From Propionibacteriaceae bacterium (GTDB taxonomy: Bacteria > Actinomycetota > Actinomycetes > Propionibacteriales > Propionibacteriaceae): 32,000 nucleotides of DNA. The notes beneath the pieces are model-generated. The model had not been told where the DNA came from. It did not search any database and saw nothing but the letters and a program-made list of their open reading frames with translations. How positions within the stretch are numbered: the first letter of the stretch is position 1; each line of letters starts with the position of its first letter. The stretch lies in assembly GCA_031256725.1 (NCBI GenBank), contig JAIRQE010000019.1:30001-62000 (forward strand), read 5' to 3'. The translations under genes were made by a program, and so were the position numbers. Below, one piece after another: positions 2,359-21,787 of the stretch.

Positions 2359-2782
2359 TCATGATGATGTAACAGCCATGGAGGCTGGAGCAACCCTAGC
2401 TGGTTTATGAACTGCTGATAGGGCTACGACAAGAAGTACGAGCCCGGTGCAGACAAAGGCATTACCAGATTGCCTAAAGATCCCCACAGTCACCTCGTTT
2501 GGCACCTGCGCTGGGGTCCATTCTGGTGGATGTAGTACCTGAGGTGACTGGTTATATGGAGGTACTGATCTTATATGGAGGTACTGATCGCGCAGCTATG
2601 GCTTCTCGTACCTCGTGATCACCATTGACCTGAAGCCAGGTGAGTAGCTCCGGGTAGGCATTAGGATGGCGAGCCACCTCAACCAAGGACTCTCGATGGG
2701 TTCGGATAAGGCTCACCAGTTCGACCGTTGTCATATCAGTCCTGAGCGGGGTGGACCCACCAGGATAAGTTGGATCAGACAT
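2359..2782 (-). pseudogene. Small membrane-anchored hypothetical protein, frameshift-truncated by a 19-bp tandem duplication (extant ORF 2552..2782, 76 aa)
   Basis: Strong SD (AAGGAGGTG) lies 4 nt upstream of the ATG at 2782. The ORF stops inside the second copy of a perfect 19-bp duplication. Deleting one copy restores a 134-codon frame ending at the TGA at 2359..2361. The restored C-terminus contains a hydrophobic helix (NAFVCTGLVLLVVALSAV). Confidence 0.5.
2552..2589. repeat. Perfect 19-bp tandem duplication (TTATATGGAGGTACTGATC x2)
   Basis: Copy 1 is 2552..2570 and copy 2 is 2571..2589; they are identical and directly abutting. Confidence 0.95.
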
Positions 2783-2869: not shown

Positions 2870-5356
2870 TCAGCCCAGGGTGATCTTGAGATGAACTTCG
2901 CGACCCTCAGGCCCAGTTTCGATCTGCGCATAGTTGCGCCGAGATCCTTGTGTTGGAGTGAAAGGGACACCATCAACGGTGATTGTCGACACACCTGTGG
3001 ACACATGGTGAGGGTTGAGCACCTCAATGAGATATGTACTCCCCCTCCATTGGCGTGTCACGGTGAATCCATCCCATGAACCTGGGATACAGGGATCAAT
3101 GATCAGATGATTGAGCCGTGGGCGGATTCCAAGAATGTACCGAGTCGCTGCGGTGTACATCCACCCCGCAGTACCCGTGAGCCAAGGATTCTGCGCCTGA
3201 CCATAGTATTCATGGTCGCGCCCGAAGATGAACTGAGTGTAGACAAAGGGTTCTGCGCCTCGTACTTCGATGGAGTCATTGTGGGTAATGGGGGCCATCG
3301 CCTGGTAATACTCAAAGGCGCGATCGCCGCGCCCCAGCATGGTTTCAGCAATGATGGGCCAGGCATTGGGATGGGAGAAAATGGCCCCATTTTCCTTGAC
3401 CCCAGGATAAACCCTTGTCACATAGCCAATAGTGTCGTCGACCTTGGTGTAGGAAGGCGAACACAAATGCAATCCATACTCGCTTGCAAGGTGTTCGTTG
3501 ACTGCATCCATGGAGGATAACCCCCGGGACTTACCAGCAACACCACTCATCACAGCCAGACCCATATGCTCTAGAAAGATTTTTCCTTCCTCGGATTCCC
3601 GAGAGCCGATCTTCACTCCATCACGGGTGAATCCCCGTAGGTACCACTGCCCATCCCAGAGTTCCCGATTAGCAGCTTCAGTTGCTTGGTCGATGATCTC
3701 ATTGAGACGGGCAACCAATCCCAGGTGCGACTGGAGGTCGATAAGCAGGTCCCTCAGGGTACGTGCTGCCCACACATGGAGGAAAGTCACCAAAGCCGTT
3801 TGCCCACCACCAAGGTTAAGACAGTCATTCCAATCTGCCCTGAGACCTTGGGCAATTCCATTGTCACCCACATGGGTCGTAGTGAACTCCAGCCCCCTCA
3901 TGAGGTGTTCCAGAACCGTCGCAACCCTGTGATCGGCGCTGGCATAAGAGCCGAGCACCTTTGCTCTTTCTTCTTCATTCAGATCCGTGTCAGCGAAAGG
4001 TACCACCTCATTCAGCAGCCCCACATCACCACTCTCAACAATGTAGTCCACAACAGAGACCACCAACCATAGATGATCATCCGAGCAGGCATCCTTCAAA
4101 CCGTGAACAAGATCTGTGGCTTTCCCTGGAACAACGGTAGGAAGCTTCACCCCCACGGGAATATCTTTTCGGTGATTTTCCGCGAAAAGCCCAGGCTCGA
4201 AAAGATGGAGGCCGTACCCTGGGGACATCTGGCCTCTGACAAGTTCCTGGATTCTCTGTTTCACCTTGTTAGGGTTGGTGTGTACGACACTGCCAATATC
4301 CTGGGCGGTGTCTCTATACCCCAAACCGACCCGGCCACCAACCTCCACAAAGGAGGCGAACCGACTCCAGACCACACAGGTTTCCGCTTGATAGAGGGTC
4401 CATGTGTTGATGAGAGTGTTCAGGGCCCCACTGGGGGTTTCGCAGAAGTAAACAGCCTTCTTCTTTTTCCAATACTCCGCTAGGGATACGATCGCCTGAT
4501 CAACTACACCAGGAGTTAAATACTTCTTCCTCATCGCTGTACCGACTTCGCGATTTCCGTACCCTAGAAGGTAGGTGAGCCGCAGTGTCTGGCCGGGTTC
4601 TAGAAGTAATGTGTGATGGAGGGCCCCGCAATGATTGCCTGTTGTTCCCTGGGTGTTTGAACAGGAACCTTTCTCAACAGCGATGGGGTTGGACTCGGTT
4701 CTATAGGAGCCAATGAAGGAGTCCCTCTTAGAGTCGAAGCTGGTTGGTTCCAGATCACTGGTGAAGTAATGGTAGGTCCATGGCTCATAGTAGAAGTCGT
4801 ACTCGATCACCGAATCGGCGTAATCCGAACCTGAGGCATAGAGCGACATTTGGAAGTTTTCGTTATCGATCTGTACCGAGTGATAGGAAAATTCCACGTA
4901 CCCAAATAGGGAGAGGTACCTTCGGTGATCGGTGGTATTTGTGACATGGACATCCCACAGTTCCACATCATCACCAATGGGTACGAAAACCCTTTGACTA
5001 GTGGAAATCCCTCGATAGTCTGATTCAAAGACCGAGTACGAAAGTCCATGACGAGTACGATAGGTCGCCTCACCTAGAGGCTTGCCAACCGGTTGCCAGG
5101 ACCCGGACCAATAGTCACCATTCTCGTCATCGCGCAGGTAGAGATAGTGACCAGGGCGATCCATGGGTACCCCATTTGGGCGGAACCGTGTCACCCTCCC
5201 CTGTTGGCTCGACTTATAGAAACTATAACCTCCTGCATTCTGGTTGATGACGGTACACCAGTTCTCCACACCGATGTAGTTGATCCACGAGTGTGGTACA
5301 TCCACACGATCAATGACATACTCATCGGCTGAGTCGTCAAAATACCCGTATTTCAT
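2870..5356 (-). CDS. GH94 family disaccharide phosphorylase, N,N'-diacetylchitobiose-phosphorylase-like clade (substrate not proven)
   Basis: 828 aa. GH94 hallmarks are MKYGYFDD N-terminus, AGGYSFY, GLRADWNDCLNLGGG (catalytic Asp motif), VKENGAIFSHPNAW and NPWLTGTAGW. It diverges from cellobiose phosphorylases where those have WNQYQCMVTFNMSRSAS / GRADWNDCLNLNCFS / YKENxGIFCHNN; here the equivalents are TWTLYQAETCVVWSRFAS / ...NLGGG / ...FSHPN. As far as I recall, these match the Vibrio ChbP-type branch. Confidence 0.85.
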   Translation of the reverse strand: MKYGYFDDSADEYVIDRVDVPHSWINYIGVENWCTVINQNAGGYSFYKSSQQGRVTRFRPNGVPMDRPGHYLYLRDDENGDYWSGSWQPVGKPLGEATYRTRHGLSYSVFESDYRGISTSQRVFVPIGDDVELWDVHVTNTTDHRRYLSLFGYVEFSYHSVQIDNENFQMSLYASGSDYADSVIEYDFYYEPWTYHYFTSDLEPTSFDSKRDSFIGSYRTESNPIAVEKGSCSNTQGTTGNHCGALHHTLLLEPGQTLRLTYLLGYGNREVGTAMRKKYLTPGVVDQAIVSLAEYWKKKKAVYFCETPSGALNTLINTWTLYQAETCVVWSRFASFVEVGGRVGLGYRDTAQDIGSVVHTNPNKVKQRIQELVRGQMSPGYGLHLFEPGLFAENHRKDIPVGVKLPTVVPGKATDLVHGLKDACSDDHLWLVVSVVDYIVESGDVGLLNEVVPFADTDLNEEERAKVLGSYASADHRVATVLEHLMRGLEFTTTHVGDNGIAQGLRADWNDCLNLGGGQTALVTFLHVWAARTLRDLLIDLQSHLGLVARLNEIIDQATEAANRELWDGQWYLRGFTRDGVKIGSRESEEGKIFLEHMGLAVMSGVAGKSRGLSSMDAVNEHLASEYGLHLCSPSYTKVDDTIGYVTRVYPGVKENGAIFSHPNAWPIIAETMLGRGDRAFEYYQAMAPITHNDSIEVRGAEPFVYTQFIFGRDHEYYGQAQNPWLTGTAGWMYTAATRYILGIRPRLNHLIIDPCIPGSWDGFTVTRQWRGSTYLIEVLNPHHVSTGVSTITVDGVPFTPTQGSRRNYAQIETGPEGREVHLKITLG

Positions 5357-7525
5357 TCAGGCTCCTGCATAGTCGTGAACCCAGTCGATGAGTTCCTGGG
5401 CGTGTACCTCGTCAGCGGCCTCAGCGATCATCCTCAGAATAGGCTCAGTACCAGAAAAGCGCAGCAGTACCCAGGAACCATTGTCCAAGGTGATCTTGAA
5501 TCCGTCGTAGGTGTCGATTGTGACCACGGGGATCCCTGCAATAGTAGTGGGCTGGGATTCGGTAATCCTGCGTGGGATCTCGACCTTCATATCGGGGGTC
5601 GCAGGGATTCCTGTCTCAATCTGTGTGGCACGCCCCGTGATGGCGAAGACCTCATCAAGCAGGACACTGAGTTTTTTTCCTGTCACAGCCAACATCTCAC
5701 ATACCAGCGCACAGGCGAAGATACCGTCCTTACCGAGGATCCATCCACGGATCGTGAGACCACCTGAGGATTCTCCCCCAAGGACAGCATTAATCTGGGC
5801 CATTCCTGCGGTGATGTACTTGAACCCCACAGGTACCTCCACATGAGGTTCCCCGAAATGATCAGCGAGCCGATCAATAAGGTGTGTCGTGGAGAGGTTG
5901 CGAACGACTCCACCTTGTTCTCCCCTCATCTCATGGAGGTACCAATAGATCAAGACAAGCAACTCATTGGTGGAAACATAACGACCAGTTTCATCGACGA
6001 TTCCGATACGGTCGGAGTCACCATCCGTGGCCAGCCCAAGGTCATAGGTACCCTGATTCTTGACCATGTCGATCAGTGTTGTCAGTGCAGCGGCATCCGG
6101 GGCTGGTGACTTCCCACCAAACAAAGGATTATGGGGGGCATGGATGAACTCCGCGCGTACCCGTGCATCTGAGAGGACCAGACCCAAGGTGAGTTGGCTT
6201 GTACCATACATGGGATCTATCAGTACACGCAGTGGTTTCGCAGCCCTCATCTTGGGGATGTCGATCTGTGTTTCGATAGCCTCCACATAGGCATTCGTCA
6301 GATCAATCTCGGTGATGAGTCCTGAATTCATAGCAGTCCCATAGTCGATGGTGACGACATCAGCGTTCCTCAAAGAGTTGGCTTCATCTTGGAAGGCATC
6401 GGTTTCATCATTGAGAGGAAGAGACCCGTCGGCTCTGAAAACCTTCAACCCATTCCACTGGGGTGGATTATGGGAGGCAGTGAAAACCAAAGAATACTGA
6501 GACCCAGTGTGGGGGGCCGCAAAGGTCACCAAAGGAGTGGGGACATCACCACGGAGTACCCGGGTTAGGATATTGTTCCCCGCAAAGACTTCAGCAGCTA
6601 CTCGTACCGATTCTGCTGAAAGGAAGCGACGATCTCCGCCAATCACGACACCTTTGGATTCTGTACCTGTGCGAGTGACTTGATTGGCAATGGCTTGACA
6701 TAGGCGTCGCACATTGTGGAGGGTGAAACCCTCACCAATCTTGGCTCTCCAGCCTCCTGTACCAAAGAAGATCTCGTGGGATTCCAGGGCGTGACTGGGC
6801 TCAAAGAGACGTTTGAGGACGATGTCTTCAGCCCTCTTCAACTCTTCATCAGTGTTAATACCTTGGACTTCATCAACATCAAGGATGGCATAGGAGGCCA
6901 CTGGGTTCCCCTCGGCAATCAGACGTTCCGCCAGTTCTGTAAGTCGGTGCTCTCCAATGGCAGCCATCTCATCCAATCTCGGAATGAGTATCGAACTATC
7001 GATCACGTAGGCCCCAACATTGACCTCAACGATTGCAGAGGTTTGAGTAGACAGATCGGATGCTTCAACGATCTCGACGATGCGGGCCTGGTCATCTCGA
7101 AGAATCCGACCATAGTCTCCAGGATCATCAACCATAGCGGTGAGAAGGGAAAACTGTGACTCTTTGAGATGATGTTTCCAGATCAGCCCTCGAAGAGAGG
7201 AAGCCTTCACCATAGGTGTGTCGGCATAGGCAACCAGGACATCACCCTCAAACCCGTCGAGTTGGAACCTGGCACACCTGACGGCATCACCTGTACCAGC
7301 TTGAACATTCTGACGTACATAGGTCCAGGAATCCCCCAACAACTTAGGGATGGAATCATCGTGGGCATCCACAACAATCACCACATCAGATTGGGGGATC
7401 ACTGCTGTGACACTAGCGAGGGACTGCTCCACGACCGTCGAGTTCCCCAACTGGCGCATCAAAAGATTTCTTGTCTGATCACAGCTACCTGCGGCGAGTA
7501 CTACTGCTTTCATTGAGCGGGCCAT
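5357..7525 (-). CDS. Fusion protein: GlmU-type sugar-1-phosphate nucleotidyltransferase domain (aa ~1-245) plus alpha-D-phosphohexomutase (aa ~255-722)
   Basis: N-terminal domain: KAVVLAAG, QAGTGDAV, VLVAYADTP, VDDPGDYGRI, VEVNVGAYV, GEHRLTE and EVQGINT align with the GlmU pyrophosphorylase domain; there is no LbH acetyltransferase domain. C-terminal domain: TASHNPPQWNGLK (catalytic Ser), DGDSDR (Mg), GGESSGG (sugar loop), RFSGTEPILR (phosphate loop). Its stop TGA directly abuts the GH94 ATG, and its ATG overlaps the ROK kinase stop (TAATG). Confidence 0.85.
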   Translation of the reverse strand: MARSMKAVVLAAGSCDQTRNLLMRQLGNSTVVEQSLASVTAVIPQSDVVIVVDAHDDSIPKLLGDSWTYVRQNVQAGTGDAVRCARFQLDGFEGDVLVAYADTPMVKASSLRGLIWKHHLKESQFSLLTAMVDDPGDYGRILRDDQARIVEIVEASDLSTQTSAIVEVNVGAYVIDSSILIPRLDEMAAIGEHRLTELAERLIAEGNPVASYAILDVDEVQGINTDEELKRAEDIVLKRLFEPSHALESHEIFFGTGGWRAKIGEGFTLHNVRRLCQAIANQVTRTGTESKGVVIGGDRRFLSAESVRVAAEVFAGNNILTRVLRGDVPTPLVTFAAPHTGSQYSLVFTASHNPPQWNGLKVFRADGSLPLNDETDAFQDEANSLRNADVVTIDYGTAMNSGLITEIDLTNAYVEAIETQIDIPKMRAAKPLRVLIDPMYGTSQLTLGLVLSDARVRAEFIHAPHNPLFGGKSPAPDAAALTTLIDMVKNQGTYDLGLATDGDSDRIGIVDETGRYVSTNELLVLIYWYLHEMRGEQGGVVRNLSTTHLIDRLADHFGEPHVEVPVGFKYITAGMAQINAVLGGESSGGLTIRGWILGKDGIFACALVCEMLAVTGKKLSVLLDEVFAITGRATQIETGIPATPDMKVEIPRRITESQPTTIAGIPVVTIDTYDGFKITLDNGSWVLLRFSGTEPILRMIAEAADEVHAQELIDWVHDYAGA

Positions 7526-8424
7526 TATTCCACTTCCATTCCGCCTCGACCGATCAGAGCCGCACCGATTGCAGCTGCTCGGTAATTCGGATCCAGGACA
7601 GAGATCTCTTCAGCTATTTCAGCATAATCAGGAAATGTCGTATTCTGGCTGCGTGTCACCAGGAAATTTTGAACAGCTGGAAGGATCCAGGGTGCTGCGT
7701 GGATGACTCCCCCACCAAGCACAATGTAATCCGAGGCATAGACCACGGCGACCAGGGCTGCAACACGAGCTATAACCCGTACTGCTTGATCATGGGCAGC
7801 TATACCAGCTGGAGAAGAATCCTTGTCGAGGGTGGCCCATTGAAGTTCAAGCATCTCCATCCTAGGTGCCAGATAGCGACCCCCCACTACGGTTTCGATA
7901 CACCCGCGTTGGCCACAGCGGCAAGGATCCCCATTCGGATTCAGCACAACGTGACCGATTTCACCTGCACGGTTATTTCTCCCTCGAAGCAGTCGTCCAC
8001 CATCCAGGGTTGCTGAGGCCACACCTGTACCAAAGTTCACGTATGTCACCGAGGTTGACTTGAGCAGGTTACCCACAGCGACAACGGTGGCTTTCACATC
8101 ATTATCAAGGTACACGGGTACAGAAAACTCATCAGCAATCAGATCACGCAAGAGGGTTTGATTGATCCCCAGATTCACCGCGTTTGCGATGGTACCAGTC
8201 TCGCGATTGACAACCCCGGGAATACCGATACCCACTGAGGTGAAGTCTGTGAGTTCTTGTCCGGTTTGGGAAGCGAGGTGACCAGCGACCTCAAGGAGTC
8301 CGGCGACTACACCCTGTTCACCTCGACGCGTGGCAGTGGAGTACTCAGCGATCACGCGATCCTCCTGGGAGAGTACGATACCCTCAGTACTCGTTGAACC
8401 AATATCAATTCCTAGGCTTAACAT
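7525..8424 (-). CDS. ROK-family sugar kinase (no DNA-binding domain)
   Basis: 299 aa. It has the LGIDIGSTS ATP-binding N-terminus, the GEIGH motif and the CRCGQRGCIE zinc motif typical of ROK kinases (glucokinase/GlcNAc kinase type). Confidence 0.85.
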   Translation of the reverse strand: MLSLGIDIGSTSTEGIVLSQEDRVIAEYSTATRRGEQGVVAGLLEVAGHLASQTGQELTDFTSVGIGIPGVVNRETGTIANAVNLGINQTLLRDLIADEFSVPVYLDNDVKATVVAVGNLLKSTSVTYVNFGTGVASATLDGGRLLRGRNNRAGEIGHVVLNPNGDPCRCGQRGCIETVVGGRYLAPRMEMLELQWATLDKDSSPAGIAAHDQAVRVIARVAALVAVVYASDYIVLGGGVIHAAPWILPAVQNFLVTRSQNTTFPDYAEIAEEISVLDPNYRAAAIGAALIGRGGMEVE

Positions 8425-8443
8425 AATTCCTTTCTAAAACTGA

Positions 8444-9295
8444 TTAGCCTTTGACTGCACCGGCAACCAAACCGGAGGTCAAACGGCCTTGAACAAGCAG
8501 GAAGAAAATGATCACAGGGATGGCGACCAGTGTCGAAGAGGCCATCACCTGCCCCCAATCAATCTCTCTCGCTTGGGATGCTTGGATAAAGGTACGCAAC
8601 CACAAGGGCAGGGTGCGCATCTGTTCTGCAGGAAGGATCACCAAGGCGATGGTGAACTCATTCCAAGCTTGGAGGAAGGCATAGACCCCGGAGGCCACCA
8701 ATCCTGGGGCAAGCAAGGGCAAGGTTATTCTGAAGAAGGCACCCGCCGAGGAACAACCATCCACCTGTGCGGACTCCTCCAGATCGGCAGGTACACCAGC
8801 AACGAATCCCCTGAGCATCCAGATGGTGAAGGGGACAACGGCGGCGATGTAGAGAATCGAGACACCCAGGACAGAGTTCAACAAACCGGTGGTGGACATC
8901 ATCTTGTACTGGGCAATAAATAAGCCCTCAGCGGGGAGCATCTGGATGAACAGGATCGCCAACACGAAGGATTTGCGTCCCCTGAACTTGAAGCGTGAGA
9001 TCGCCAAAGCCGCGAGGAATGCGAAAAGGATGGCGAAAAAGACTGCAATGAGGGTCACCTGGAGTGATATGGTCAAGGCCCGCAGGAAGGTACCTCCACT
9101 GAGAACACTTGCGTAATTGGCGAAGCTGCCACCCCAGGGGAAGAAGCGAGGTGTAGTCGAGCTCAAAACCACATTGGGGAGCAGTGAACTGGAGAGCATC
9201 CAGTAAACGGGGAAGACCCAGATCAGGGCAATGACGATCGCAACGAGGGATAGGACTAGGCGCAGGGGCTTGAAATGCTGACGTATGGTGATCAT
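8444..9295 (-). CDS. Carbohydrate ABC transporter permease (MalG/CUT1 type)
   Basis: 283 aa, six predicted TM segments, and an EAA loop (LEESAQVDGCSSAGAFFRITLPLLAPG). It overlaps the upstream permease gene by 4 nt. Confidence 0.9.
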   Translation of the reverse strand: MITIRQHFKPLRLVLSLVAIVIALIWVFPVYWMLSSSLLPNVVLSSTTPRFFPWGGSFANYASVLSGGTFLRALTISLQVTLIAVFFAILFAFLAALAISRFKFRGRKSFVLAILFIQMLPAEGLFIAQYKMMSTTGLLNSVLGVSILYIAAVVPFTIWMLRGFVAGVPADLEESAQVDGCSSAGAFFRITLPLLAPGLVASGVYAFLQAWNEFTIALVILPAEQMRTLPLWLRTFIQASQAREIDWGQVMASSTLVAIPVIIFFLLVQGRLTSGLVAGAVKG

Positions 9296-10284
9296 GAATC
9301 CTCCTTGACTAGGCGCATCACATAGGCAATCGAGATCACAATGGTGATCAGAAGAACGAAGATGGACAGAGCCGACGCCATGGCGAAGTCTCCAGATCCC
9401 ACACCAAGTCGGTAGATATAGGTACCCAATAGGTCTGAGTTGAGAGGCATCTGTGCGTCTTGAAGCATTCGGATCTGGGTGAAAACTCGAAGATCCCAGA
9501 TGATTTGAAGCAGACCCACGATCATGAGTACTGGGCGGATCATAGGAACAATAATGGTGGTGAACTTCCGTGAGGCTGAGGCCCCATCAAGGCTCGCGGC
9601 CTCCATGATTTCCGGGGAAACCTGGGTGAGTCCGGCATAGATGGAGAAGGCCACAAAGGGTACTGACATCCACACCACGATCAGTGTTGCCACGAAATAC
9701 AGACCTAGAGATGTACCCAGCCAGTTGAAACTCGTGAAGTTGAAACCCATCGCGGTCAGGGTGTGGTTGATCACTCCTCGACGCCAATCGAAGAGCCAGA
9801 TCCACACTGTGACTGCGGCGACCACAGGCATGGCCCATGCGAGAAGCAGGGAGATCTGAAGTGTGAGTTTGACCCCCTTATTCACGACATTCATGAGTAC
9901 TGCTACTGCCGTACCAATGATCATGGTGAGAATGGCGTTAACAGCACAGAAGATGAGGGATCGTGCAACAACACCCCAGGTTGATGGGTTCGTGAAGATG
10001 GAGAGGTAGTTGCTCAAACCCACAAACTCTGGTGGTGCACCGAATTGCTGGGCGAGGCCGTACCTCATCATTGATGTATAGATCTGCCACACGAGGGGGT
10101 ACCCGATGGCAATGAGAAGCATGATGACCGCTGGGAGGAGAAGGATGTACGGAGCGCGAGGATTTCTGCGGCGACGTTTGGGAGCCTGTACCTCAAGTGG
10201 ATAGAGAATATCTTGGGTGACCATGTCTACCAGGCCCGAGTCTTGAGGAGTGTCAGGTCGATTAGTGGTTGTCTCAGTCATCAT
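9292..10284 (-). CDS. Carbohydrate ABC transporter permease (MalF/CUT1 type)
   Basis: 330 aa, polytopic, with an EAA-type loop (MEAASLDGASASRKFTTIIVPMIRP). AGGAGG lies 6 nt upstream of the ATG at 10284. Confidence 0.9.
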   Translation of the reverse strand: MMTETTTNRPDTPQDSGLVDMVTQDILYPLEVQAPKRRRRNPRAPYILLLPAVIMLLIAIGYPLVWQIYTSMMRYGLAQQFGAPPEFVGLSNYLSIFTNPSTWGVVARSLIFCAVNAILTMIIGTAVAVLMNVVNKGVKLTLQISLLLAWAMPVVAAVTVWIWLFDWRRGVINHTLTAMGFNFTSFNWLGTSLGLYFVATLIVVWMSVPFVAFSIYAGLTQVSPEIMEAASLDGASASRKFTTIIVPMIRPVLMIVGLLQIIWDLRVFTQIRMLQDAQMPLNSDLLGTYIYRLGVGSGDFAMASALSIFVLLITIVISIAYVMRLVKEDS

Positions 10285-10352
10285 GGTCTACCTCCTTCGA
10301 TGACGTGGGTTAATGGCGAAAGGCTGTCGTCTGGCGAAGGCTGGAATATCGC

Positions 10353-10384
10353 GTGGGGGAACCAGATCACTCCGATTCCCCCAC
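10353..10384 (-). promoter_or_regulatory. Intra-operon hairpin between the binding-protein and permease genes
   Basis: GTGGGGGAA / TTCCCCCAC forms a perfect 9-bp stem with a 14-nt loop in the 114-nt gap. There is no U-tail. Such hairpins after SBP genes usually act as mRNA stabilisers or partial attenuators. Confidence 0.45.
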
Positions 10385-10398
10385 TCGATTCCCTTTCC

Positions 10399-11748
10399 TT
10401 ACTTCTGGTTCAGCATTGGCGTGATGATAGCGTCGTATTCCTTAGTCAAGGAATCGAGGTCAGCCCCATCAGCGACCTTCTGGAAGAACTCCTCCAACTT
10501 GTTGGATGCCTCCACTGCGGCCCACCCTGGGGCAGCTGGGGTCAACTTGGAGTTTGATGCGGACTCAATGAGAGCCTTAGCGAAGATGTCATCACCGAGG
10601 GCTGACATATTGGTGGAATTGGCTGGGCCTAGACCATTCTTACCAAGCATGGTTTGGTACTCGCTAGAGAAGATGATCTCCAAGAGTTGGCGAGATCCTT
10701 CCTGCTTGGTTGACTTCGCTGAGATACCGATGTTGGATCCACCAGCGAAGACTGGAGCTGGCTTACCATCATTACCTGGAAGAGCGAAGACGCCGAAGGT
10801 GTCGTCATTCCATTCGCGAACATCCTTGCCTTCATCATTCTTGGTTAGATCACCAATAGACCAGTGAGCCCATCCGGGAGCCATGATGGTTGCCGCTGCC
10901 AAGGAGGTATCGGTCACAGTACCAGCGTCATCCTTAGCGGAATCCGTGTCATTGATGTACAGCCATGGGCTCTGATCACGTGCAGTGGTTGGGGCCATGG
11001 ATGCCTTGGCCTGAATCTCTTGGAGTTGAGCTAGGCCCTTGATGGTGTTGGGGTCTGACAGTGTTGAAACCCACTGACCATCCTCTTGCTTAGCGAGGTC
11101 TCCACCATTGGCGAAGATCCACGAGATACCATTGCGCCAGTCCTGACCGCCGATGAAGAATCCAGAGAAATCATTGATTGTCTTGGGGTTCTGGTCGGTG
11201 ATCTTCACAACGGCTGCATTGAACTCGTCAAGGGTTGCCGGAGGTGCTTTCACCCCTGCGGCTTCCCACACATCCTTGCGGTAGAACATGTATCGTGAAC
11301 CAAAGTAGTACGGCAGAGTGTAGTTCTTCCCATCAACTTTGCCAACCTCAACAAAAGACTGGAGGAGGTTCGATCCCCCGAGTTTGGCGTACATGTCTGA
11401 GATGTCAGCGAAAGCCCCAACATTAGTGAAGGTTGGAGACTGTGTGTTACCAATCTCTGTCACATCGGGAGTGTTGTTGGCATCCGGTAGCATCGCAGTG
11501 AGCTTGGTAATGATGTCACCCCAGGTCTGCTCCTCAATCGTCAGGGTTCCACCATTAACACTCTTGTACTGTTCAACAAGGTAGTCCCGAAGCTCTTGGG
11601 GAGTGTCTCCACCAATTACCCAAAATGTAATATCCTGGGCGCCCTCGGGCGTGTTGTTATCTGTCGGCTGCGGCTGGGCACAACCTGTGAGTACCAGGGC
11701 TGATGCTATAACGAGCACCAATCCAGCAATCTTTCCTCTCATTATCAT
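10399..11748 (-). CDS. ABC transporter extracellular solute-binding lipoprotein (family 1, oligosaccharide type)
   Basis: 449 aa. It has a signal peptide with lipobox LTGC, and SBP family-1 features. An SD (AGGAAAGG) lies upstream. Confidence 0.9.
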   Translation of the reverse strand: MIMRGKIAGLVLVIASALVLTGCAQPQPTDNNTPEGAQDITFWVIGGDTPQELRDYLVEQYKSVNGGTLTIEEQTWGDIITKLTAMLPDANNTPDVTEIGNTQSPTFTNVGAFADISDMYAKLGGSNLLQSFVEVGKVDGKNYTLPYYFGSRYMFYRKDVWEAAGVKAPPATLDEFNAAVVKITDQNPKTINDFSGFFIGGQDWRNGISWIFANGGDLAKQEDGQWVSTLSDPNTIKGLAQLQEIQAKASMAPTTARDQSPWLYINDTDSAKDDAGTVTDTSLAAATIMAPGWAHWSIGDLTKNDEGKDVREWNDDTFGVFALPGNDGKPAPVFAGGSNIGISAKSTKQEGSRQLLEIIFSSEYQTMLGKNGLGPANSTNMSALGDDIFAKALIESASNSKLTPAAPGWAAVEASNKLEEFFQKVADGADLDSLTKEYDAIITPMLNQK

Positions 11749-11774
11749 CCTTTCCTAAATGATGCGGGGGTGAA

Positions 11775-12908
11775 TTAAGACACTCCCAAAGTGGCTCTTA
11801 GTACGAGTGAAACGGCCCCCTTCAGGACAGCTTCATGACCAAGGCTTGAGGGCTTCACCGAAAGTTCACGGCGAAACTCTGAGTATGTGCGTTCAATAAT
11901 TAGGCTTTGACAAGCATTGATAAAGGTCTCGTCGATGAGGTCGAGTGGACCTCCGACAATGATGTGTTGAAGATCAAGGGCAGCTACGATGGGGGCAAGG
12001 GCCATACCGAGACGGCGGCCAGCCTCAGCCATGATCGTGCCTGAATGGGCCTCGTCTGATTCGAGACGCAAACGAAGACTGGGTACAGAAATCCATGTTT
12101 CCAAACACCCCTGTTTTCCACAGGAACACTCCAAACCCTTATGCTCGATAACAAGGTGGCCGATTTCGCCTGCTGCACCACCAGAACCCAGAACAAGGGA
12201 TCCCTTCAGGAGTACACCAGCACCCACGCCGCGAGAGATCTGCACTCGTACCAAATCTGGGGAGGCTTCTGCGAAGACTTTCTCGGCCATGACGGCTGCA
12301 TTCGCATCATTTTGTACCACGGCGGGGAACCCGAAACGATCAGTGACGATCTCTTGGAGGTTGACCTCACGCCAGTTGAGATTTGGGGCTGCGAGGACTG
12401 TACCAGCGTCATCGACGATGCCTGGGGAACCTATACCGATGCCCAGGATTCGATGGGTGGCGAGGGGGATGGTTTTCTGGATGAGTTCCAGAACCACGTC
12501 GACTGCCTCCTCAGCTACTCGCCCTTCCAGGGCTAAGGAGGATTCGGCCCTCTTCTCCCCTCTCAGGGAGTAGACACCTGCGCGCAAAATATCTTGGGCC
12601 GACAGATCAAGTGCGATGATGTCACATGAGTCCTCACGTACGGCAAGGCTTGTGGCAGGCTTTCCTGGGCGTACCCCAGAGGTTACTCCGGTTTCCTCAA
12701 CAAATCCTTCATTGATCAACTCAGCAACCAGGTCGGAGATGGTGACCTTCGTCAGCCCTGTCTGGCGAGCAAGATCCGCCCGAGTGAGGTACGGAGTGTC
12801 GAATAGTGACTGGAGAACAAGGGAAAGATTGAATCGTCGCCCATCTTGGGGACGAAGGATTCTCACCCCATCACGGGGATGGATTCCAAGGAGCTGCCCT
12901 GTTGTCAT
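11775..12908 (-). CDS. ROK-family transcriptional regulator (N-terminal wHTH plus ROK sensor domain)
   Basis: 377 aa. It has NLSLVLQSL...LTRADLARQTGLTKVTISDLVAELINEGFVEE (wHTH), GEIGH and CSCGKQGCLE. It lies 26 nt upstream of the SBP gene on the same strand. Confidence 0.85.
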   Translation of the reverse strand: MTTGQLLGIHPRDGVRILRPQDGRRFNLSLVLQSLFDTPYLTRADLARQTGLTKVTISDLVAELINEGFVEETGVTSGVRPGKPATSLAVREDSCDIIALDLSAQDILRAGVYSLRGEKRAESSLALEGRVAEEAVDVVLELIQKTIPLATHRILGIGIGSPGIVDDAGTVLAAPNLNWREVNLQEIVTDRFGFPAVVQNDANAAVMAEKVFAEASPDLVRVQISRGVGAGVLLKGSLVLGSGGAAGEIGHLVIEHKGLECSCGKQGCLETWISVPSLRLRLESDEAHSGTIMAEAGRRLGMALAPIVAALDLQHIIVGGPLDLIDETFINACQSLIIERTYSEFRRELSVKPSSLGHEAVLKGAVSLVLRATLGVS

Positions 12909-12912
12909 AGAT

Positions 12913-12954
12913 GTTAGTAAACCTTACTAACTTCTCTAAAGTCAAGGAATTCCT
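12913..12954 (-). promoter_or_regulatory. Candidate promoter/operator of the ROK-GH94 operon
   Basis: On the minus strand the sequence reads TTGACT (12940..12945), an 18-nt spacer, then TTTACT (12916..12921), ending 7 nt before the ATG; this suggests a leaderless transcript. A perfect palindrome GTTAGTAA-N3-TTACTAAC (12913..12931) overlaps the -10 and spacer. A second palindrome AGGAATTCCT (12945..12954) abuts the -35. Confidence 0.35.
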
Positions 12955-13060
12955 GCGTTGTTACCAAATCGTTATCTGAGCTGAGAGTAGATTCTTCCCC
13001 CCTCGAAAATTGTGCATAATCACCACCAGAAGCTAGGATGTGTGGGTTACTAAACGACAC

Positions 13061-13133
13061 GGACTCTTAGCTCAGCTGGTAGAGCACTTCCCTTACAAGG
13101 AAGGGGTCGTCGGTTCGAGCCCGGCAGAGTCCA
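13061..13133 (+). tRNA. tRNA-Val (anticodon TAC)
   Basis: Cloverleaf read by hand: acceptor GGACTCT/AGAGTCC, D-arm GCTC/GAGC, anticodon stem CTTCC/GGAAG with loop CT-TAC-AA (anticodon 13094..13096), T-arm GTCGG-TTCGAGC-CCGGC, discriminator A. No CCA is encoded. Confidence 0.93.
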
Positions 13134-13415
13134 CACAGTGTAGCCCCTAGTCAAGCGATATATCCGCAGTCACCTTCTTTCATGATAGAGGTTTATTGTG
13201 CGCAGTTTTTCCTTGCGGTTCTTCAAACCCAAGGCAACACAGGCTTCATAAATGAAAGAATTGAACTGATGAATCCTGTCTTTGGGAAGAACACACCCTT
13301 AGTGGTACTCCCGGATAAGAATCAAGAACAGACCACAAGATGCGATCCCTGGCATCTACACACCGCAGGCCGACACATCCCGGACTCGCTTGAACAAGAT
13401 ACCAGTGGCAATGCT

Positions 13416-13835
13416 TTATCGCCTACCAGCCTTTGGTCGTACTACCTTGTGGGCAGACCAATCCTTGGAAACTGAGGCGGAGATCGTTAAGGATAAGCCG
13501 GCAGCCAAGACCCCCTCGGATAGATCAGATTGGGGCACATGCCCTTCGCGTCCGATCTTGGGAGTCATTACCCAGAGGAAACCTGAAGGCCCAAGGTCAG
13601 TGAGCGCATCAATGAGGAGATCCATAACATCCCCGTCGTCTTGCCTCAGCCAAAGGACGATAGCATCAACAGCCTCAGCGGATTCCTCCACCATGTCGGC
13701 GTCAATAATCTCCATGACGGCTTGTCGAAAACTCTCATCGACATCCTCGTCCCAACCCAGTTCCTCGACAGCCATGTCTTTCACTAGACCAAGCTGATGG
13801 ATGCCTACTGCTTCAGCAGGCCCACTGTGGCTCAC
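13416..13835 (-). CDS. DUF3052-family conserved actinobacterial protein
   Basis: 139 aa, acidic. It sits immediately downstream of aceE on the same strand; DUF3052/aceE adjacency as in mycobacteria. Confidence 0.7.
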   Translation of the reverse strand: MSHSGPAEAVGIHQLGLVKDMAVEELGWDEDVDESFRQAVMEIIDADMVEESAEAVDAIVLWLRQDDGDVMDLLIDALTDLGPSGFLWVMTPKIGREGHVPQSDLSEGVLAAGLSLTISASVSKDWSAHKVVRPKAGRR

Positions 13836-19116: not shown

Positions 19117-20154
19117 GTGAATTTCCAGAAGATTGCTATTGGCGTGACAGGTGTCGCGCTGTTCCTCAGCCTCGCTGCTTGTGCAGGCGATCCTGTTGAC
19201 AAAGAAACCCCAGGTGGCGAAGTTTCTACTGAAGAGGGCTACAACCTCGTTCCTGCTGACACCAATGGCGACGGCCTCATCACACTCGGCTTCGCACAGG
19301 TTGGCGCTGAGTCCGGCTGGCGTACCGCTAACACCGACAGCTTCAAGAGCTACTTCGTTCCAGAGAACGGCTACGAGCTCGTTTTCGCTGACGCAAACCA
19401 GGATGCTGACAAGCAGAAGCAGGATGTTCGCGACCTGATTGCTCAAGGTGTTGAGGTTATCAACCTCGCTCCTGTGACCGACTCCGGCTGGGTGCCAATC
19501 CTCGAAGAGGCTAAGGCTGCTGGTATTCCGTTGATCGTGTCCGACCGTCAGTTGATGGTGGACGAGAACCTCTACCTCACCTACTTCGGTGGTGACATGG
19601 AAGGTGAAGGCAAGACCGCTGTTAAGTGGCTCAAGGACTACATCGACGCTGGGGCTATCGCTGACGACATCAACATCGTGCACCTCCAGGGCACCATCGG
19701 CTCCACCGCTCAAAAGGGCCGCACCAAGGCTCTCGACGATGCAGCTCCAGGGTACTCTTGGAACATCGTTGCCCAGCAGACTGGCGAGTTCACCCGTGCA
19801 AAGGGCCAGGAAGTCATGGAATCCATCATCCAGCAGGGTTTGGACTTCAACGTCATTTACTCTGAGAACGACGACATGACCTACGGTGCCATCGACGCGC
19901 TCAAGGCCGCTGGTATCGACCACAAGGAGAAGATCATCATCTCCTTTGACGGCAACAAGTCCGCTGTACAGATGGTTGTTGACGGTGACATCGACGTGAT
20001 CGCCGAGTGCGATCCACTCCTTGGCCCACAGATTGGTGGCCTGATTCAGGACGCCATGGCTGGCAAGAAGATCGCCAAGATTACCTACTCAGTTGAAGGC
20101 TTCATCGACTCGACCAATGCGGCCGAGAAGTTGCTGACAGCCTTCGGCTCGTAA
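19117..20154 (+). CDS. ytfQ: Sugar ABC transporter substrate-binding lipoprotein, YtfQ (galactofuranose-binding) type
   Basis: 345 aa. GTG start with AAGGAG 7 nt upstream and lipobox LAAC. GFAQVGAESGWRTANT and GEFTRAKGQEVMESII closely match E. coli YtfQ (GFSQVGSESGWRAAET, GDFTRSKGKEVMESFI). Confidence 0.88.
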   Translation: MNFQKIAIGVTGVALFLSLAACAGDPVDKETPGGEVSTEEGYNLVPADTNGDGLITLGFAQVGAESGWRTANTDSFKSYFVPENGYELVFADANQDADKQKQDVRDLIAQGVEVINLAPVTDSGWVPILEEAKAAGIPLIVSDRQLMVDENLYLTYFGGDMEGEGKTAVKWLKDYIDAGAIADDINIVHLQGTIGSTAQKGRTKALDDAAPGYSWNIVAQQTGEFTRAKGQEVMESIIQQGLDFNVIYSENDDMTYGAIDALKAAGIDHKEKIIISFDGNKSAVQMVVDGDIDVIAECDPLLGPQIGGLIQDAMAGKKIAKITYSVEGFIDSTNAAEKLLTAFGS

Positions 20155-20164
20155 ATAAGTCGTG

Positions 20165-20247
20165 AACCACCTTATGGTGGTTACCGTCTAACATGGAGGC
20201 GGGCACGTGGAGCTTAAAGGCATCGCGTGTCCGCCTTTCATCCTTTA
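20165..20247 (+). terminator. Two hairpins after ytfQ; the second resembles an intrinsic attenuator/terminator
   Basis: Hairpin 1 is AACCACC-ttat-GGTGGTT (20165..20182). Hairpin 2 is AGGCGGGCACG (20197..20207) / CGTGTCCGCCT (20226..20236), 11 bp including one G-T, followed by the T-rich TTCATCCTTTAT. Confidence 0.45.
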
Positions 20248-20269
20248 TGAGTAGGACAAGGAGACCGAT

Positions 20270-21787
20270 ATGACCCATCCACTGATCAGGATGCGGTCCA
20301 TCACCAAGAACTTCCCTGGAGTTCTCGCCCTGGACAATGTGGATTTCACCCTTCATGCTGGTGAGATTCACGCTCTGATGGGCGAAAACGGAGCAGGGAA
20401 ATCAACCCTCGTCAAGGTCCTCACAGGCGCGGAAGCCTTTGAATCTGGCGAAATCTACCTAGGCGATGAGACACAAACAATCATCAACAATTCCCCTCAA
20501 CAAGCCCAACAACGCGGGATCTCCACGGTGTACCAAGAGGTCAACCTCTGCCCCAACCTCACTGTTGCCGAAAACCTCTTTGTAGGGCGCCAACCCAAAC
20601 GCTTTGGTTTCGTCCACTGGGCCGAGATGAACCGTAGAGCCCGCACAATTATGGAGGATATTGGCGTCGACATTAATGTCGAAAAACCCCTTGAAACCTA
20701 CTCCCTAGCCGTCCAACAAATGGTTGCTATCGGGCGAGCCATTGATATCTCAGTCAATGTTTTGATCCTTGATGAACCCACCAGTTCCCTCAATGAAGCA
20801 GAGGTGGCCAAACTCTTCGATCTCATGAGGAAGCTGAAAGGCCAGGGTATCGGGATCATCTTCATTACCCACTTCCTTGAACAGGTCTATGAGGTATGCG
20901 ACAAGATCACTGTGCTCCGAAATGGTGGTCTCGTTGGTGAATATGCCATTGAGACTATGCCCCGCAAGGATCTTGTTGCCGCAATGCTTGGGCGTTCTTT
21001 CGATGATCTTGCTGCAATCCAACATGAGGGTTCTGACATCAACGAGAAGAGCGATGAGCCCCTGATTTCTGCTCAAGGGTTGGGGGTCAGAGGTGGAGTG
21101 AAACCCTTCGACTTGAATATCTATCGTGGGGAGGTTGTCGGCCTCGCTGGTTTGCTGGGCTCTGGACGTACCGAGGTCGCTCGCGCGATTTATGGAGCCG
21201 ATAACCCCGATGCGGGTACCTTAGAAGCCAAGGGCAAAAAGCTTCGTCATAATCCCCTAGCTGCCATGAGAGCAGGTATGGCCTTCTGTCCTGAATCCCG
21301 TAAACATGAGGGCTGTGTTGCAGATCTTTCCGTACGCGAGAACATCATCTTGGCTGAGCAAACCAAGCGGGGCGTCTTCCGACTCATGTCTCGCGCCGAA
21401 CAGGAGAAGATTGCGAAGAAGTACGTTGATCTGCTCCAGATCAAAACCGCAAGCCTTGAGACCCCCATTAGCCAACTCTCCGGCGGGAACCAGCAGAAGG
21501 TTATCCTTGCCCGTTGGCTGGCCACCCACCCTGAGTTCCTGATCCTTGACGAGCCGACCCGTGGTATCGACGTTGGTACCAAAGCCGAAATTCAAAAGCT
21601 CTGTGTGGAACTCGCTGACGAAGGCATGGCTGTACTTTTCATATCCTCAGAAATCGATGAGATGTTGCGTACCTGTTCTCGTATCGGGATCATGAGGGAC
21701 CTCAAGAAGGTCGGCGAAATCTCAGGCGAGGACCTGTCCTCGTCAACCGTTATGTCTATGATTGCAGGAGGTGAGACGCATGAGTGA
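20270..21787 (+). CDS. ytfR: Sugar ABC transporter ATP-binding protein with duplicated NBDs (YtfR type)
   Basis: 505 aa. It has Walker A GENGAGKST, two LSGGNQQK/ABC signature regions and two Walker B motifs (LILDEPT). AAGGAGA SD upstream. Confidence 0.9.
   Translation: MTHPLIRMRSITKNFPGVLALDNVDFTLHAGEIHALMGENGAGKSTLVKVLTGAEAFESGEIYLGDETQTIINNSPQQAQQRGISTVYQEVNLCPNLTVAENLFVGRQPKRFGFVHWAEMNRRARTIMEDIGVDINVEKPLETYSLAVQQMVAIGRAIDISVNVLILDEPTSSLNEAEVAKLFDLMRKLKGQGIGIIFITHFLEQVYEVCDKITVLRNGGLVGEYAIETMPRKDLVAAMLGRSFDDLAAIQHEGSDINEKSDEPLISAQGLGVRGGVKPFDLNIYRGEVVGLAGLLGSGRTEVARAIYGADNPDAGTLEAKGKKLRHNPLAAMRAGMAFCPESRKHEGCVADLSVRENIILAEQTKRGVFRLMSRAEQEKIAKKYVDLLQIKTASLETPISQLSGGNQQKVILARWLATHPEFLILDEPTRGIDVGTKAEIQKLCVELADEGMAVLFISSEIDEMLRTCSRIGIMRDLKKVGEISGEDLSSSTVMSMIAGGETHE

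Follow-up and report, generated by a model that had tools for sequence, protein, structure and literature searches.

Predicted chitobiose utilization operon with a nucleotidyltransferase-mutase fusion

We analyzed a 32-kb stretch of a Propionibacteriaceae genome (contig JAIRQE010000019.1, positions 30,001 to 62,000; hereafter the window, in whose own coordinates all positions are given), which contains seven co-directional open reading frames (ORFs) on the minus strand at 2870-12908. Our best explanation of this locus, held with reasonable but not high confidence, is an autoregulated operon for the utilization of chitobiose, the disaccharide (GlcNAc)2 of N-acetylglucosamine (GlcNAc). Its key component would be a fusion protein, composed of a GlmU-like nucleotidyltransferase domain and a phosphohexomutase, which may feed both catabolism and the formation of UDP-GlcNAc. 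Chitobiose uptake, its phosphorolysis, and the interconversion of GlcNAc-1-phosphate (GlcNAc-1-P) and GlcNAc-6-phosphate (GlcNAc-6-P) are well supported as predictions from the encoded domains. The genes, as obtained from the ORF list of the window, are as follows (aa, amino acids; ABC, ATP-binding cassette; GH94, glycoside hydrolase family 94; ChbP, N,N'-diacetylchitobiose phosphorylase, EC 2.4.1.280):

2870..5356, minus strand: GH94 protein, probable ChbP orthologue, 828 aa (Pfam GH94 supersandwich and catalytic domains; phmmer)
5357..7525, minus strand: fusion protein, 722 aa, NTP_transferase plus PGM_PMM_I-IV (Pfam)
6797..7525, minus strand: N-terminal domain of the fusion, aa 1-243, GlmU-N-terminal-like nucleotidyltransferase (NCBIfam, PDB)
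5357..6778, minus strand: C-terminal part of the fusion, aa 250-722 plus stop codon, four-domain alpha-D-phosphohexomutase (Pfam)
7525..8424, minus strand: ROK sugar kinase, 299 aa (Pfam ROK, 1.2e-41, plus motifs)
8444..9295, minus strand: ABC permease 2, 283 aa, MalG/UgpE-like (Pfam BPD_transp_1)
9292..10284, minus strand: ABC permease 1, 330 aa, MalF/UgpA-like (Pfam BPD_transp_1)
10399..11748, minus strand: CUT1-type ABC solute-binding lipoprotein, 449 aa (Pfam SBP_bac_8/SBP_bac_1; lipobox)
11775..12908, minus strand: ROK-family transcriptional regulator, 377 aa, first gene of the operon (Pfam helix-turn-helix plus ROK)

The regulator and solute-binding protein (SBP) genes are separated by 26 nt and the SBP and permease 1 genes by 114 nt, the two permease genes overlap by 4 nt, and a gap of 19 nt lies between the permease 2 and kinase genes. 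The kinase/fusion junction reads TAATG, and the fusion/GH94 junction reads TGAATG. A first-pass annotation, made from the sequence alone, had described a seven-gene operon with these junctions and domain contents, and its description agrees exactly with the ORF coordinates, the sequence and the Pfam results. The nearest homologues are found in metagenome-assembled genomes (MAGs) of Propionibacteriaceae (70-76% identity). About 20 related Propionibacteriaceae/Propionicimonas-like genomes share this order of the seven genes, so the arrangement is not due to chance.

The GH94 protein is a probable chitobiose phosphorylase

The GH94 protein contains both the supersandwich domain (PF06165, 3e-77) and the (alpha/alpha)6 catalytic domain (PF17167, 1.8e-149). 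Its closeness to ChbP was judged by phmmer bit scores against the PDB sequences of solved GH94 enzymes rather than by a full phylogeny: ChbP of Vibrio proteolyticus (VpChBP; PDB 1v7v) scored 948.9 bits, compared with at most 494 bits for cellobiose phosphorylases (CBP), 284 bits for cyclic glucan synthase, 191 bits for 4zle (deposited as a putative b-glycan phosphorylase), and 52 bits for the laminaribiose enzyme. Residue alignment revealed identity to 1v7v at Q168, R343, R349, D350, D492, C493, V631, H644, Q690, T709, and G710. Among these, D492 corresponds to the catalytic Asp of VpChBP, and R343, R349, D350, H644, Q690, T709, and G710 are phosphate/-1 subsite residues, all of which are kept. 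The +1 subsite retains Q168 and V631 and has Tyr in place of F627, which is ChbP-type rather than CBP-type; the cellobiose phosphorylase of C. thermocellum has Glu and Tyr at the positions equivalent to 627 and 631. We take Q168, F627, and V631 to be involved in N-acetyl recognition. Compared with VpChBP, there is one 19-residue insertion around aa 459-477. The overall identity to ChbP is approximately half of the residues (~51%). Close homologues of the protein are named N,N'-diacetylchitobiose phosphorylase in the source databases. Based on the bit scores and the conserved subsite residues, we consider it highly probable that this protein is a ChbP orthologue, which would have the corresponding activity. 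The first-pass annotation had found it to depart from cellobiose phosphorylases at several conserved blocks and to resemble ChbP, with the substrate left unproven, and had proposed an inspection of the +1 and -1 subsites; both the scores and the residues favor the ChbP type. Characterized ChbPs have been reported from V. furnissii, V. proteolyticus, and Ignavibacterium album, with no actinobacterial enzyme among them (PMC8950772).

It is improbable that the substrate is a different beta-linked disaccharide, such as GlcNAc-GlcN, a GlcNAc disaccharide derived from peptidoglycan or N-glycans, cellobiose, or laminaribiose, in which case the sugar-1-phosphate and the nucleotide sugar would differ accordingly. 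Such a substrate would fit the F627-to-Tyr change and the 19-aa insertion, as well as the glucokinases that are the nearest solved structures to the ROK kinase. It would also fit the best solved relative of the SBP in the PDB search, CbpB (2e-19, a weak and generic similarity that does not identify the substrate), which we take to be a cellodextrin-binding protein. Moreover, GH94 specificity has surprised before, as in the case of a poly-beta-1,3-GlcNAc phosphorylase (PMC9052796). On the other hand, the score of VpChBP is about twice that of any glucoside phosphorylase, and the checked ChbP residues, including V631 and Q168, are kept, with an aromatic residue retained at 627 where the cellobiose enzyme has the Glu/Tyr combination. 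The nucleotidyltransferase domain of the fusion also matches GlmU far better than Glc-1-P transferases. All of these points favor chitobiose.

The fusion and ChbP genes form a conserved module

A scan of one genome per species revealed relatives of the fusion protein in 259 genomes, and the best 80, all of which are full-length fusions, were examined, their neighbors being mapped by tblastn with the window proteins and from pre-called genes. A neighborhood survey of this kind had been proposed in the first-pass annotation for the co-occurrence of the fusion with GH94. Sequence downstream of the fusion gene is present in 76 of the 80 loci, and in 73 of these 76 a ChbP-like GH94 gene (56-83% identity) follows directly on the same strand, usually at a distance of 20-130 nt. 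The module was detected in Propionibacteriaceae, Propionicimonas, Bifidobacteriaceae MAGs, Actinomyces (Actinomycetaceae), Scrofimicrobium, Sanguibacter, Flavimobilis, Demequina, Cellulomonas, Actinotalea, Cellulosimicrobium, Oerskovia, and one Chloroflexota MAG, that is, mostly in Actinomycetota. The full seven-gene layout is limited to the Propionibacteriaceae-like group, and a stand-alone two-gene module was observed in unrelated neighborhoods in Sanguibacter, Demequina, a Bifidobacteriaceae MAG, and Actinomyces. Since the pair is kept in such unrelated surroundings, the conserved functional unit appears to be the fusion plus ChbP.

The mutase part of the fusion (aa 250-722) has an intact set of four domains (Pfam PGM_PMM_I-IV). 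Its TASHNP phosphoserine, DGDSDR metal, GGESSGG sugar, and RFSGTEP phosphate loops are invariant in 17 homologues. An AlphaFold2 (AF2) model matched PGM/PMM structures with TM-scores of 0.82-0.88 (normalized to the target; Foldseek), the closest structures to the mutase part being Thermus and archaeal PGM/PMM. The Foldseek search with the full model returned mutases only and no solved structure with the fused architecture. To our knowledge, this architecture is uncharacterized, and we know of no other nucleotidyltransferase-mutase fusion that has been characterized. Specificity for GlcNAc-1-P/GlcNAc-6-P is suggested by the conserved adjacency to ChbP together with the Vibrio precedent described below, and on these grounds the mutase is likely to act on GlcNAc phosphates.

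Two metagenomic loci of another lineage (L090/L091, 4881-15517) have a ChbP-like GH94 gene (54% identity) directly followed by an unfused mutase gene, whose product shares 43% identity with residues 236-711 of the fusion; next come genes for a two-component system of the YesM/YesN-like type and for a CUT1 ABC importer. As the mutase alone pairs with ChbP across phyla (in these loci and in Vibrio), its core job would be the catabolic flow from the 1-phosphate to the 6-phosphate. The mutase is thus the universal partner of ChbP, and the nucleotidyltransferase domain is an add-on. A more distant fusion of 721 aa was found in a Firmicute-type locus in which CodY is present (L088, 1-15807). It has a near-canonical G-K-G-E-R-M...P-K loop and no GH94 gene nearby, and it sits beside nagB and nagA, so the fusion architecture coexists with the deacetylation route there rather than replacing it. 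The surrounding genes encode an SBP_bac_6 SBP, an ATPase, a fused double permease, a HAD hydrolase, and a histidine kinase with an AraC-type response regulator. The ABC set presumably resembles the Afu sugar-phosphate transporter, and the whole may be an amino-sugar-phosphate utilization locus.

Some other arrangements were also observed. In L090/L091, a NUDIX hydrolase gene lies ahead of the GH94 gene, which encodes a sugar-1-P-producing enzyme. In L022 (7549-12169), the fusion gene comes after two phosphofructokinase-family genes. The GH94 gene of the Propionicimonas-like locus L086 (14787-17398) is followed by an overlapping 382-aa ORF with no Pfam match and then by a GH3 gene. In L084 (4140-5333), a GH94 gene without the fusion is followed by an unknown 397-aa ORF, a HAD hydrolase gene, and a major facilitator superfamily transporter gene. 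There is no homology between the two unknown proteins encoded after GH94 in L086 and L084.

The GlmU-like domain and the formation of UDP-GlcNAc

The nucleotidyltransferase domain (aa 7-241) matched NCBIfam GlmU models at 7.6e-43, with RmlA, GalU, and ManC at ~1e-5 or worse, and it matched Streptococcus pneumoniae GlmU in the PDB at 1.6e-30. The acetyltransferase domain of GlmU, a left-handed beta-helix (LbH), is not present: there is no Hexapep match, and Pfam assigns aa 250-722 to the phosphohexomutase instead. The fusion protein is therefore not a GlmU. Eight residues (Q72, G77, T78, Y100, D102, E154, N169, and N224) do not vary among 17 members of the family and align with the uracil/ribose, Mg2+, and GlcNAc ligands of S. 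pneumoniae GlmU, which we take to be Q76, G81, T82, Y103, D105, E154, N169, and N227 in E. coli numbering. D102 and N224 align with the Mg ligands, and R19 aligns with the catalytic Arg (Lys in one homologue). In the AF2 model (overall pLDDT 83.6, pTM 0.82), the domain has a pLDDT of 86-94. The pattern of conservation indicates that the domain is under purifying selection, with a mean pairwise identity of 59.6% versus 70.5% for the mutase.

A search of 1.8 billion representatives with the N-terminal domain yielded many fragments, the distant fusions P0378 and P0296, and stand-alone GlmU-N-like proteins of 250 aa. The low-GC fusion P0378 keeps the near-canonical G-K-G-E-R-M...P-K loop, which suggests that the ancestral fusion was probably catalytic. 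Besides, the N-terminal domain of GlmU is active alone, and its trimer is not needed (PMC10087520). The invariance of the Mg, uracil, and GlcNAc ligands makes UDP-GlcNAc formation plausible, and we lean slightly toward a domain that is catalytically active and makes UDP-GlcNAc.

Several observations weigh against this proposal and against the operon reading built on it. The fingerprint L-X2-G-X-G-T-X-M-X4-P-K, described as strictly conserved in pyrophosphorylases of the GlmU class (PMC10087520), is found neither in the window nor anywhere in the actinobacterial clade, which makes UDP-GlcNAc formation the weakest link. The window loop LAAGSCDQTRNLLMRQL reads L-A-A-G-S-C-D-Q-T-R-N-L-L-M-R-Q-L, and its signature loop LAAGSCDQTRNLL is non-canonical and without P-K. 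Across the clade, the consensus is LAAG-x4-[ST]-[RK]-x-L-L: the P-K segment has been deleted and the second Gly lost, the loop exceeds the canonical one by two residues, and only the Arg survives (Lys in one member). GlcNAc-1-P could already be used by a housekeeping GlmU, if there is one, which makes a further uridylyltransferase seem redundant. In an Actinomyces MAG (L087), the fusion-GH94 pair is immediately preceded, on its own strand, by a UDPGP-family gene (PF01704, eukaryote-type UDP-sugar pyrophosphorylase family, 450 aa, 8535-9887); this may be a coincidence or may hint that the fused domain is insufficient alone. Three loci (L022, L025, and L073) have a full-length fusion without a downstream GH94 gene and could be paralogous copies or rearranged loci. 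The sugar specificity of the kinase and the SBP is not diagnosable from sequence, their PDB and NCBIfam matches being weak and generic. Finally, our literature search, with subscription-only papers outside it, found no publication on the fusion family and no measured activity; the source databases name the protein 'NTP transferase domain-containing protein' or 'phosphomannomutase'. Of the last step of the route put forward in the first-pass annotation, UDP-GlcNAc synthesis, the GlmU-like fold and its ligands hold, but the fingerprint does not, and the step is retained here as a prediction.

One alternative is a purely catabolic module, in which the fusion would act only as a GlcNAc-1-P to GlcNAc-6-P mutase, like VC0611 of Vibrio cholerae. 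The GlmU-like domain would then be non-catalytic and serve either as a UDP-GlcNAc/UTP sensor that tunes the mutase or as a structural/oligomerization domain. We regard this as unlikely, although it deserves serious attention. It would account for the clade-wide loss of the catalytic fingerprint, with P-K deleted and G-X-G-T lost, and for the faster evolution of the N-terminal domain relative to the mutase. The invariant residues are those needed merely for binding UDP-GlcNAc, and the partner of ChbP in other lineages is the mutase alone (L090/L091; Vibrio, PMC5209532). However, the equivalents of D102, N224, and R19 are kept, and pseudoenzymes usually lose such residues; the distant fusion also keeps the canonical loop. 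As for a sensor role, no GlmU-N domain is known to us to serve in this way, which counts against that form of the explanation.

A stronger form of the proposal is that the fusion is a true bifunctional GlcNAc-phosphate mutase/GlcNAc-1-P uridylyltransferase with a non-canonical nucleotide-binding loop, present in several hundred actinobacterial species. This is a tentative idea, and we would not rely on it at present. If it were true, there would be a complete deacetylation-free route from a chitin disaccharide to UDP-GlcNAc, and the essential GlmS/GlmM/GlmU-acetyltransferase steps could be conditionally dispensable when chitobiose is available. In a stranger variant of the same idea, the degenerate domain would be a UDP-GlcNAc sensor gating the split between catabolism and cell-wall synthesis.

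Proposed pathway and its main direction

In the proposed pathway, ChbP would convert (GlcNAc)2 and phosphate to GlcNAc and alpha-GlcNAc-1-P (the family is assigned by sequence and the activity predicted from it), and the ROK kinase would phosphorylate the free GlcNAc to GlcNAc-6-P. The mutase domain would interconvert GlcNAc-1-P and GlcNAc-6-P, with the bulk flux probably running from the 1-phosphate to the 6-phosphate, as with Vibrio VC0611. By turning GlcNAc-1-P into GlcNAc-6-P, the mutase would most likely pull phosphorolysis forward, and GlcNAc-6-P would then pass through NagA and NagB encoded elsewhere. In the least certain step, the GlmU-like domain would combine part of the GlcNAc-1-P pool with UTP to form UDP-GlcNAc, a deacetylation-free shortcut to a cell-wall precursor.

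No nagA, nagB, hexosaminidase, GH20, or GH3 domain was found by Pfam among ORFs of at least 150 aa in the 32-kb window. The first-pass annotation had noted that nagA, nagB, and hexosaminidase are missing from the locus, and this applies to the whole window and to the window only. It had gone further and proposed a dedicated salvage route bypassing NagA, which now appears to be an over-reading, as the mutase probably feeds mainly catabolism. Such a dedicated anabolic route, in which essentially all chitobiose would become UDP-GlcNAc, with the mutase running from the 6-phosphate to the 1-phosphate and the NagA/GlmS/GlmM/GlmU-acetyltransferase steps bypassed, is very improbable. It is true that the locus has neither nagA nor nagB and that kinase, mutase, and nucleotidyltransferase would add up to a complete eukaryote-like path. 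Nevertheless, an inducible high-capacity importer with a phosphorylase is typical of carbon/nitrogen use, not of the small demand for UDP-GlcNAc. Phosphohexomutase equilibria favor the 6-phosphate, and the absence of nagA and nagB is known from 32 kb of the genome only. Therefore, given the capacity of importer and phosphorylase, the pairing of ChbP with the mutase alone across phyla, and the homologous L088 fusion adjoining nagB and nagA, a dedicated salvage route is not supported, and an operon that serves both catabolism and UDP-GlcNAc formation is preferred.

The new part of this system is a well-defined, widespread, and directly testable fusion enzyme; the surrounding sugar-utilization operon is otherwise ordinary. 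Should the module indeed connect the breakdown of chitin directly to UDP-GlcNAc, bacteria would have an equivalent of the salvage path of eukaryotes. A function would then be assigned to a widespread protein labeled only 'NTP transferase domain-containing protein', and a nucleotidyltransferase would be found to work without a supposedly invariant fingerprint. The pair would also be a compact means of producing UDP-GlcNAc, with chitin oligomers, phosphate, and UTP as starting materials. With an inactive domain, the system would be no more than the Vibrio chitobiose pathway in an ordinary actinobacterial form.

Uptake, phosphorylation and regulation

Three non-coding features accompany the genes:

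10343..10393, minus strand: RNA hairpin in the gap between the SBP and permease 1 genes (RNA fold)
12913..12931, no strand assigned: putative ROK operator palindrome GTTAGTAA-ACC-TTACTAAC (unique in the window; conserved in relatives)
12959..12975, minus strand: second conserved upstream box ATAACGATTTGGTAACA (by inspection only)

An L-T-G-C lipobox is located at aa 20-23 of the SBP, and permease 1 has GlcT/UgpA-like NCBIfam matches under the cut-off. The lipoprotein and the two permeases would form a CUT1 ABC system importing (GlcNAc)2, with the ATPase encoded elsewhere. The 114-nt gap after the SBP gene (10285-10398, minus strand) forms a hairpin that has 14 bp in its central stem and a minimum free energy of -46.5 kcal/mol (z = -3.78; none of 200 shuffles was as stable). 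It is probably an mRNA-stabilizing or attenuating element that would raise SBP expression relative to the permeases and other downstream genes. In the kinase, the DxGxT, ExGH, and CxCGxxGC motifs (ATP, sugar, and zinc) are all present, and no NCBIfam equivalog was reached; its assignment as a GlcNAc 6-kinase is a prediction from gene context.

The regulator consists of a winged helix-turn-helix (aa 31-72; HTH_24/MarR_2) and a ROK domain (aa 109-371; Pfam ROK, 1.4e-48), with partial NagC/Mlc-like matches under NCBIfam cut-offs. Upstream of its gene, GTTAGTAA-ACC-TTACTAAC forms a perfect 8+3+8 palindrome that ends 4 nt ahead of the ATG, so the operon mRNA is probably leaderless or nearly so. The palindrome occurs once in the window (0.01 expected by chance). 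Its form GTT[AC]G[TG]AA-N3-TT[AT]ACTAAC is found at the equivalent place in about 17 of 20 related loci despite diverged flanks, with one copy per locus in the 20. In L066 (Actinotalea) and L080, it is located instead ~100 nt upstream of the fusion gene. The palindrome thus moves with the fusion-GH94 pair in Actinotalea, which counts in favor of the operon as we read it. In Demequina and Actinomyces loci, that site ahead of the fusion gene is taken by related GTTAGG...CCTAAC palindromes. We infer that the ROK repressor uses the conserved palindrome as its operator and that the operon is autoregulated: the repressor would bind at its own leaderless start and be released by an inducer.

About 30 nt upstream of the operator lies the ATAACGATTTGGTAACA box. 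On inspection only, its variants ATAACG[AG]T[TG][CT]GGT[AC]A are present at the equivalent relative position in relatives (L003, L004, L006, L013, L015, L019, L026, and L033), and it may be the site of a second regulator. In L033, a box of this type forms part of a palindrome, TGACCA-N8-TGGTCA. Other lineages show other motifs. A shorter palindrome, TGTTAGG-CTT-CCTAACA, which has the GTTAG/CTAAC cores in common with the operator at a different spacing, occurs ~100-130 nt upstream of the fusion gene in Sanguibacter/Flavimobilis loci (L042, L044, and L081). Cellulosimicrobium, Cellulomonas, and Oerskovia loci (L048, L050, L052, L055, L067, L069, L074, and L079) have an ATTTG-N3-5-GGAGTCC motif in common instead. 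The fusion-GH94 module may be under different regulators in different lineages. No convincing sigma-70 promoter or intrinsic terminator was obtained in the promoter/terminator scan, no terminator was recognized after the GH94 gene, and Rfam detected no riboswitch in the operon, a tRNA being its sole match.

Surroundings of the operon

The flanking genes in the window include GTP-dependent phosphoenolpyruvate carboxykinase (pckG), tRNA-Val, DUF3052, aceE, uppP, and an rpsB-tsf-pyrH-frr-cdsA block, a gene content that assigns the stretch to Actinomycetota. The tRNA-Val gene (anticodon TAC; 13061-13134, plus strand) is situated between the promoter region of the operon and the DUF3052/aceE genes, and an ORF beside it (13182-13475, plus strand) has no Pfam match and is probably spurious. 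The 664-nt gap between GH94 and pckG contains a 76-aa ORF (2552-2782, minus strand; AAGGAGG ahead), a 48-aa hydrophobic ORF (2359-2505, minus strand), and an exact 19-bp tandem duplication (GATCAGTACCTCCATATAA x2, 2552-2589) at the end of the 76-aa ORF; taken together, they resemble what is left of a disrupted membrane-protein gene. Unrelated to the operon are a ribose/xylose-type ABC importer (19117-23995, plus strand), comprising a Peripla_BP_4 SBP, a duplicated ATPase, and two BPD_transp_2 permeases, and an ISL3-family transposase gene (24431-25777, plus strand).

Comparison with known systems

Compared with the Vibrio (GlcNAc)2 operon (VC0611-VC0620), the window likewise co-encodes an ABC importer, a GH94 ChbP, a sugar kinase, and a phosphohexomutase, all four functions being present by domain. 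The importer and kinase families of Vibrio presumably differ from those of the window. In V. cholerae, VC0611 is a GlcNAc-1-P mutase and VC0612 a (GlcNAc)2 phosphorylase, and the two genes are adjacent, so the analogy drawn in the first-pass annotation is a real one (PMC5209532). The phosphorylase and mutase genes are adjacent in the window as well, and the ChbP plus unfused mutase of L090/L091 mirrors the VC0612/VC0611 pair. Unlike in Vibrio, the mutase of the window carries the N-terminal GlmU-like domain, the importer is a CUT1 system whose SBP is a lipoprotein and which lacks an ATPase gene, the first gene encodes a ROK repressor as the regulator, hexosaminidase and glucosidase genes are not part of the operon, and the gene order is fusion then GH94. 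The relation is therefore one of functional analogy with an orthologous ChbP, and the mutases are probably orthologous too.

For aa 1-243 of the fusion, no family or structure matched better than the N-terminal domain of GlmU, which is autonomous in that enzyme (PMC10087520), and the equivalents of its ligands are kept. The fusion differs from GlmU in having a mutase in place of the LbH acetyltransferase domain and in its divergent fingerprint. The other nucleotidyltransferase-phosphohexomutase fusions, the low-GC P0378 and L088 proteins, are 36% identical to that of the window and have the near-canonical loop; unlike in the window, the L088 fusion is not beside GH94.

In textbook bacterial reuse of GlcNAc, deacetylation by NagA is followed by GlmM and by re-acetylation through GlmU. 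The eukaryotic salvage path NAGK, AGM1/PGM3, UAP1/AGX1 would share its chemical logic, with no deacetylation, with the window pathway if the UDP-GlcNAc step is real. Its components are non-homologous in part, since the window kinase is of the ROK and not the NAGK family and the transferase is GlmU-type and not UDPGP-type. AGM1/PGM3 and the window mutase belong to the same superfamily, the latter being closest to archaeal/Thermus PGM/PMM, and, unlike in eukaryotes, half of the sugar would enter as the 1-phosphate through phosphorolysis. Direct conversion of a sugar-1-phosphate to a UDP-sugar by an enzyme of the same cluster is known in bacteria from AmgK-MurU and from the Bifidobacterium LnpA-NahK-LnpC pathway for galacto-N-biose (GNB) and lacto-N-biose (LNB), where the sugar-1-phosphate comes from an anomeric kinase or a disaccharide phosphorylase. 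Those systems differ from the one described here in using GH112, APH-type kinases, a GalT-type transferase, and MurU, with neither a mutase nor a domain fusion.

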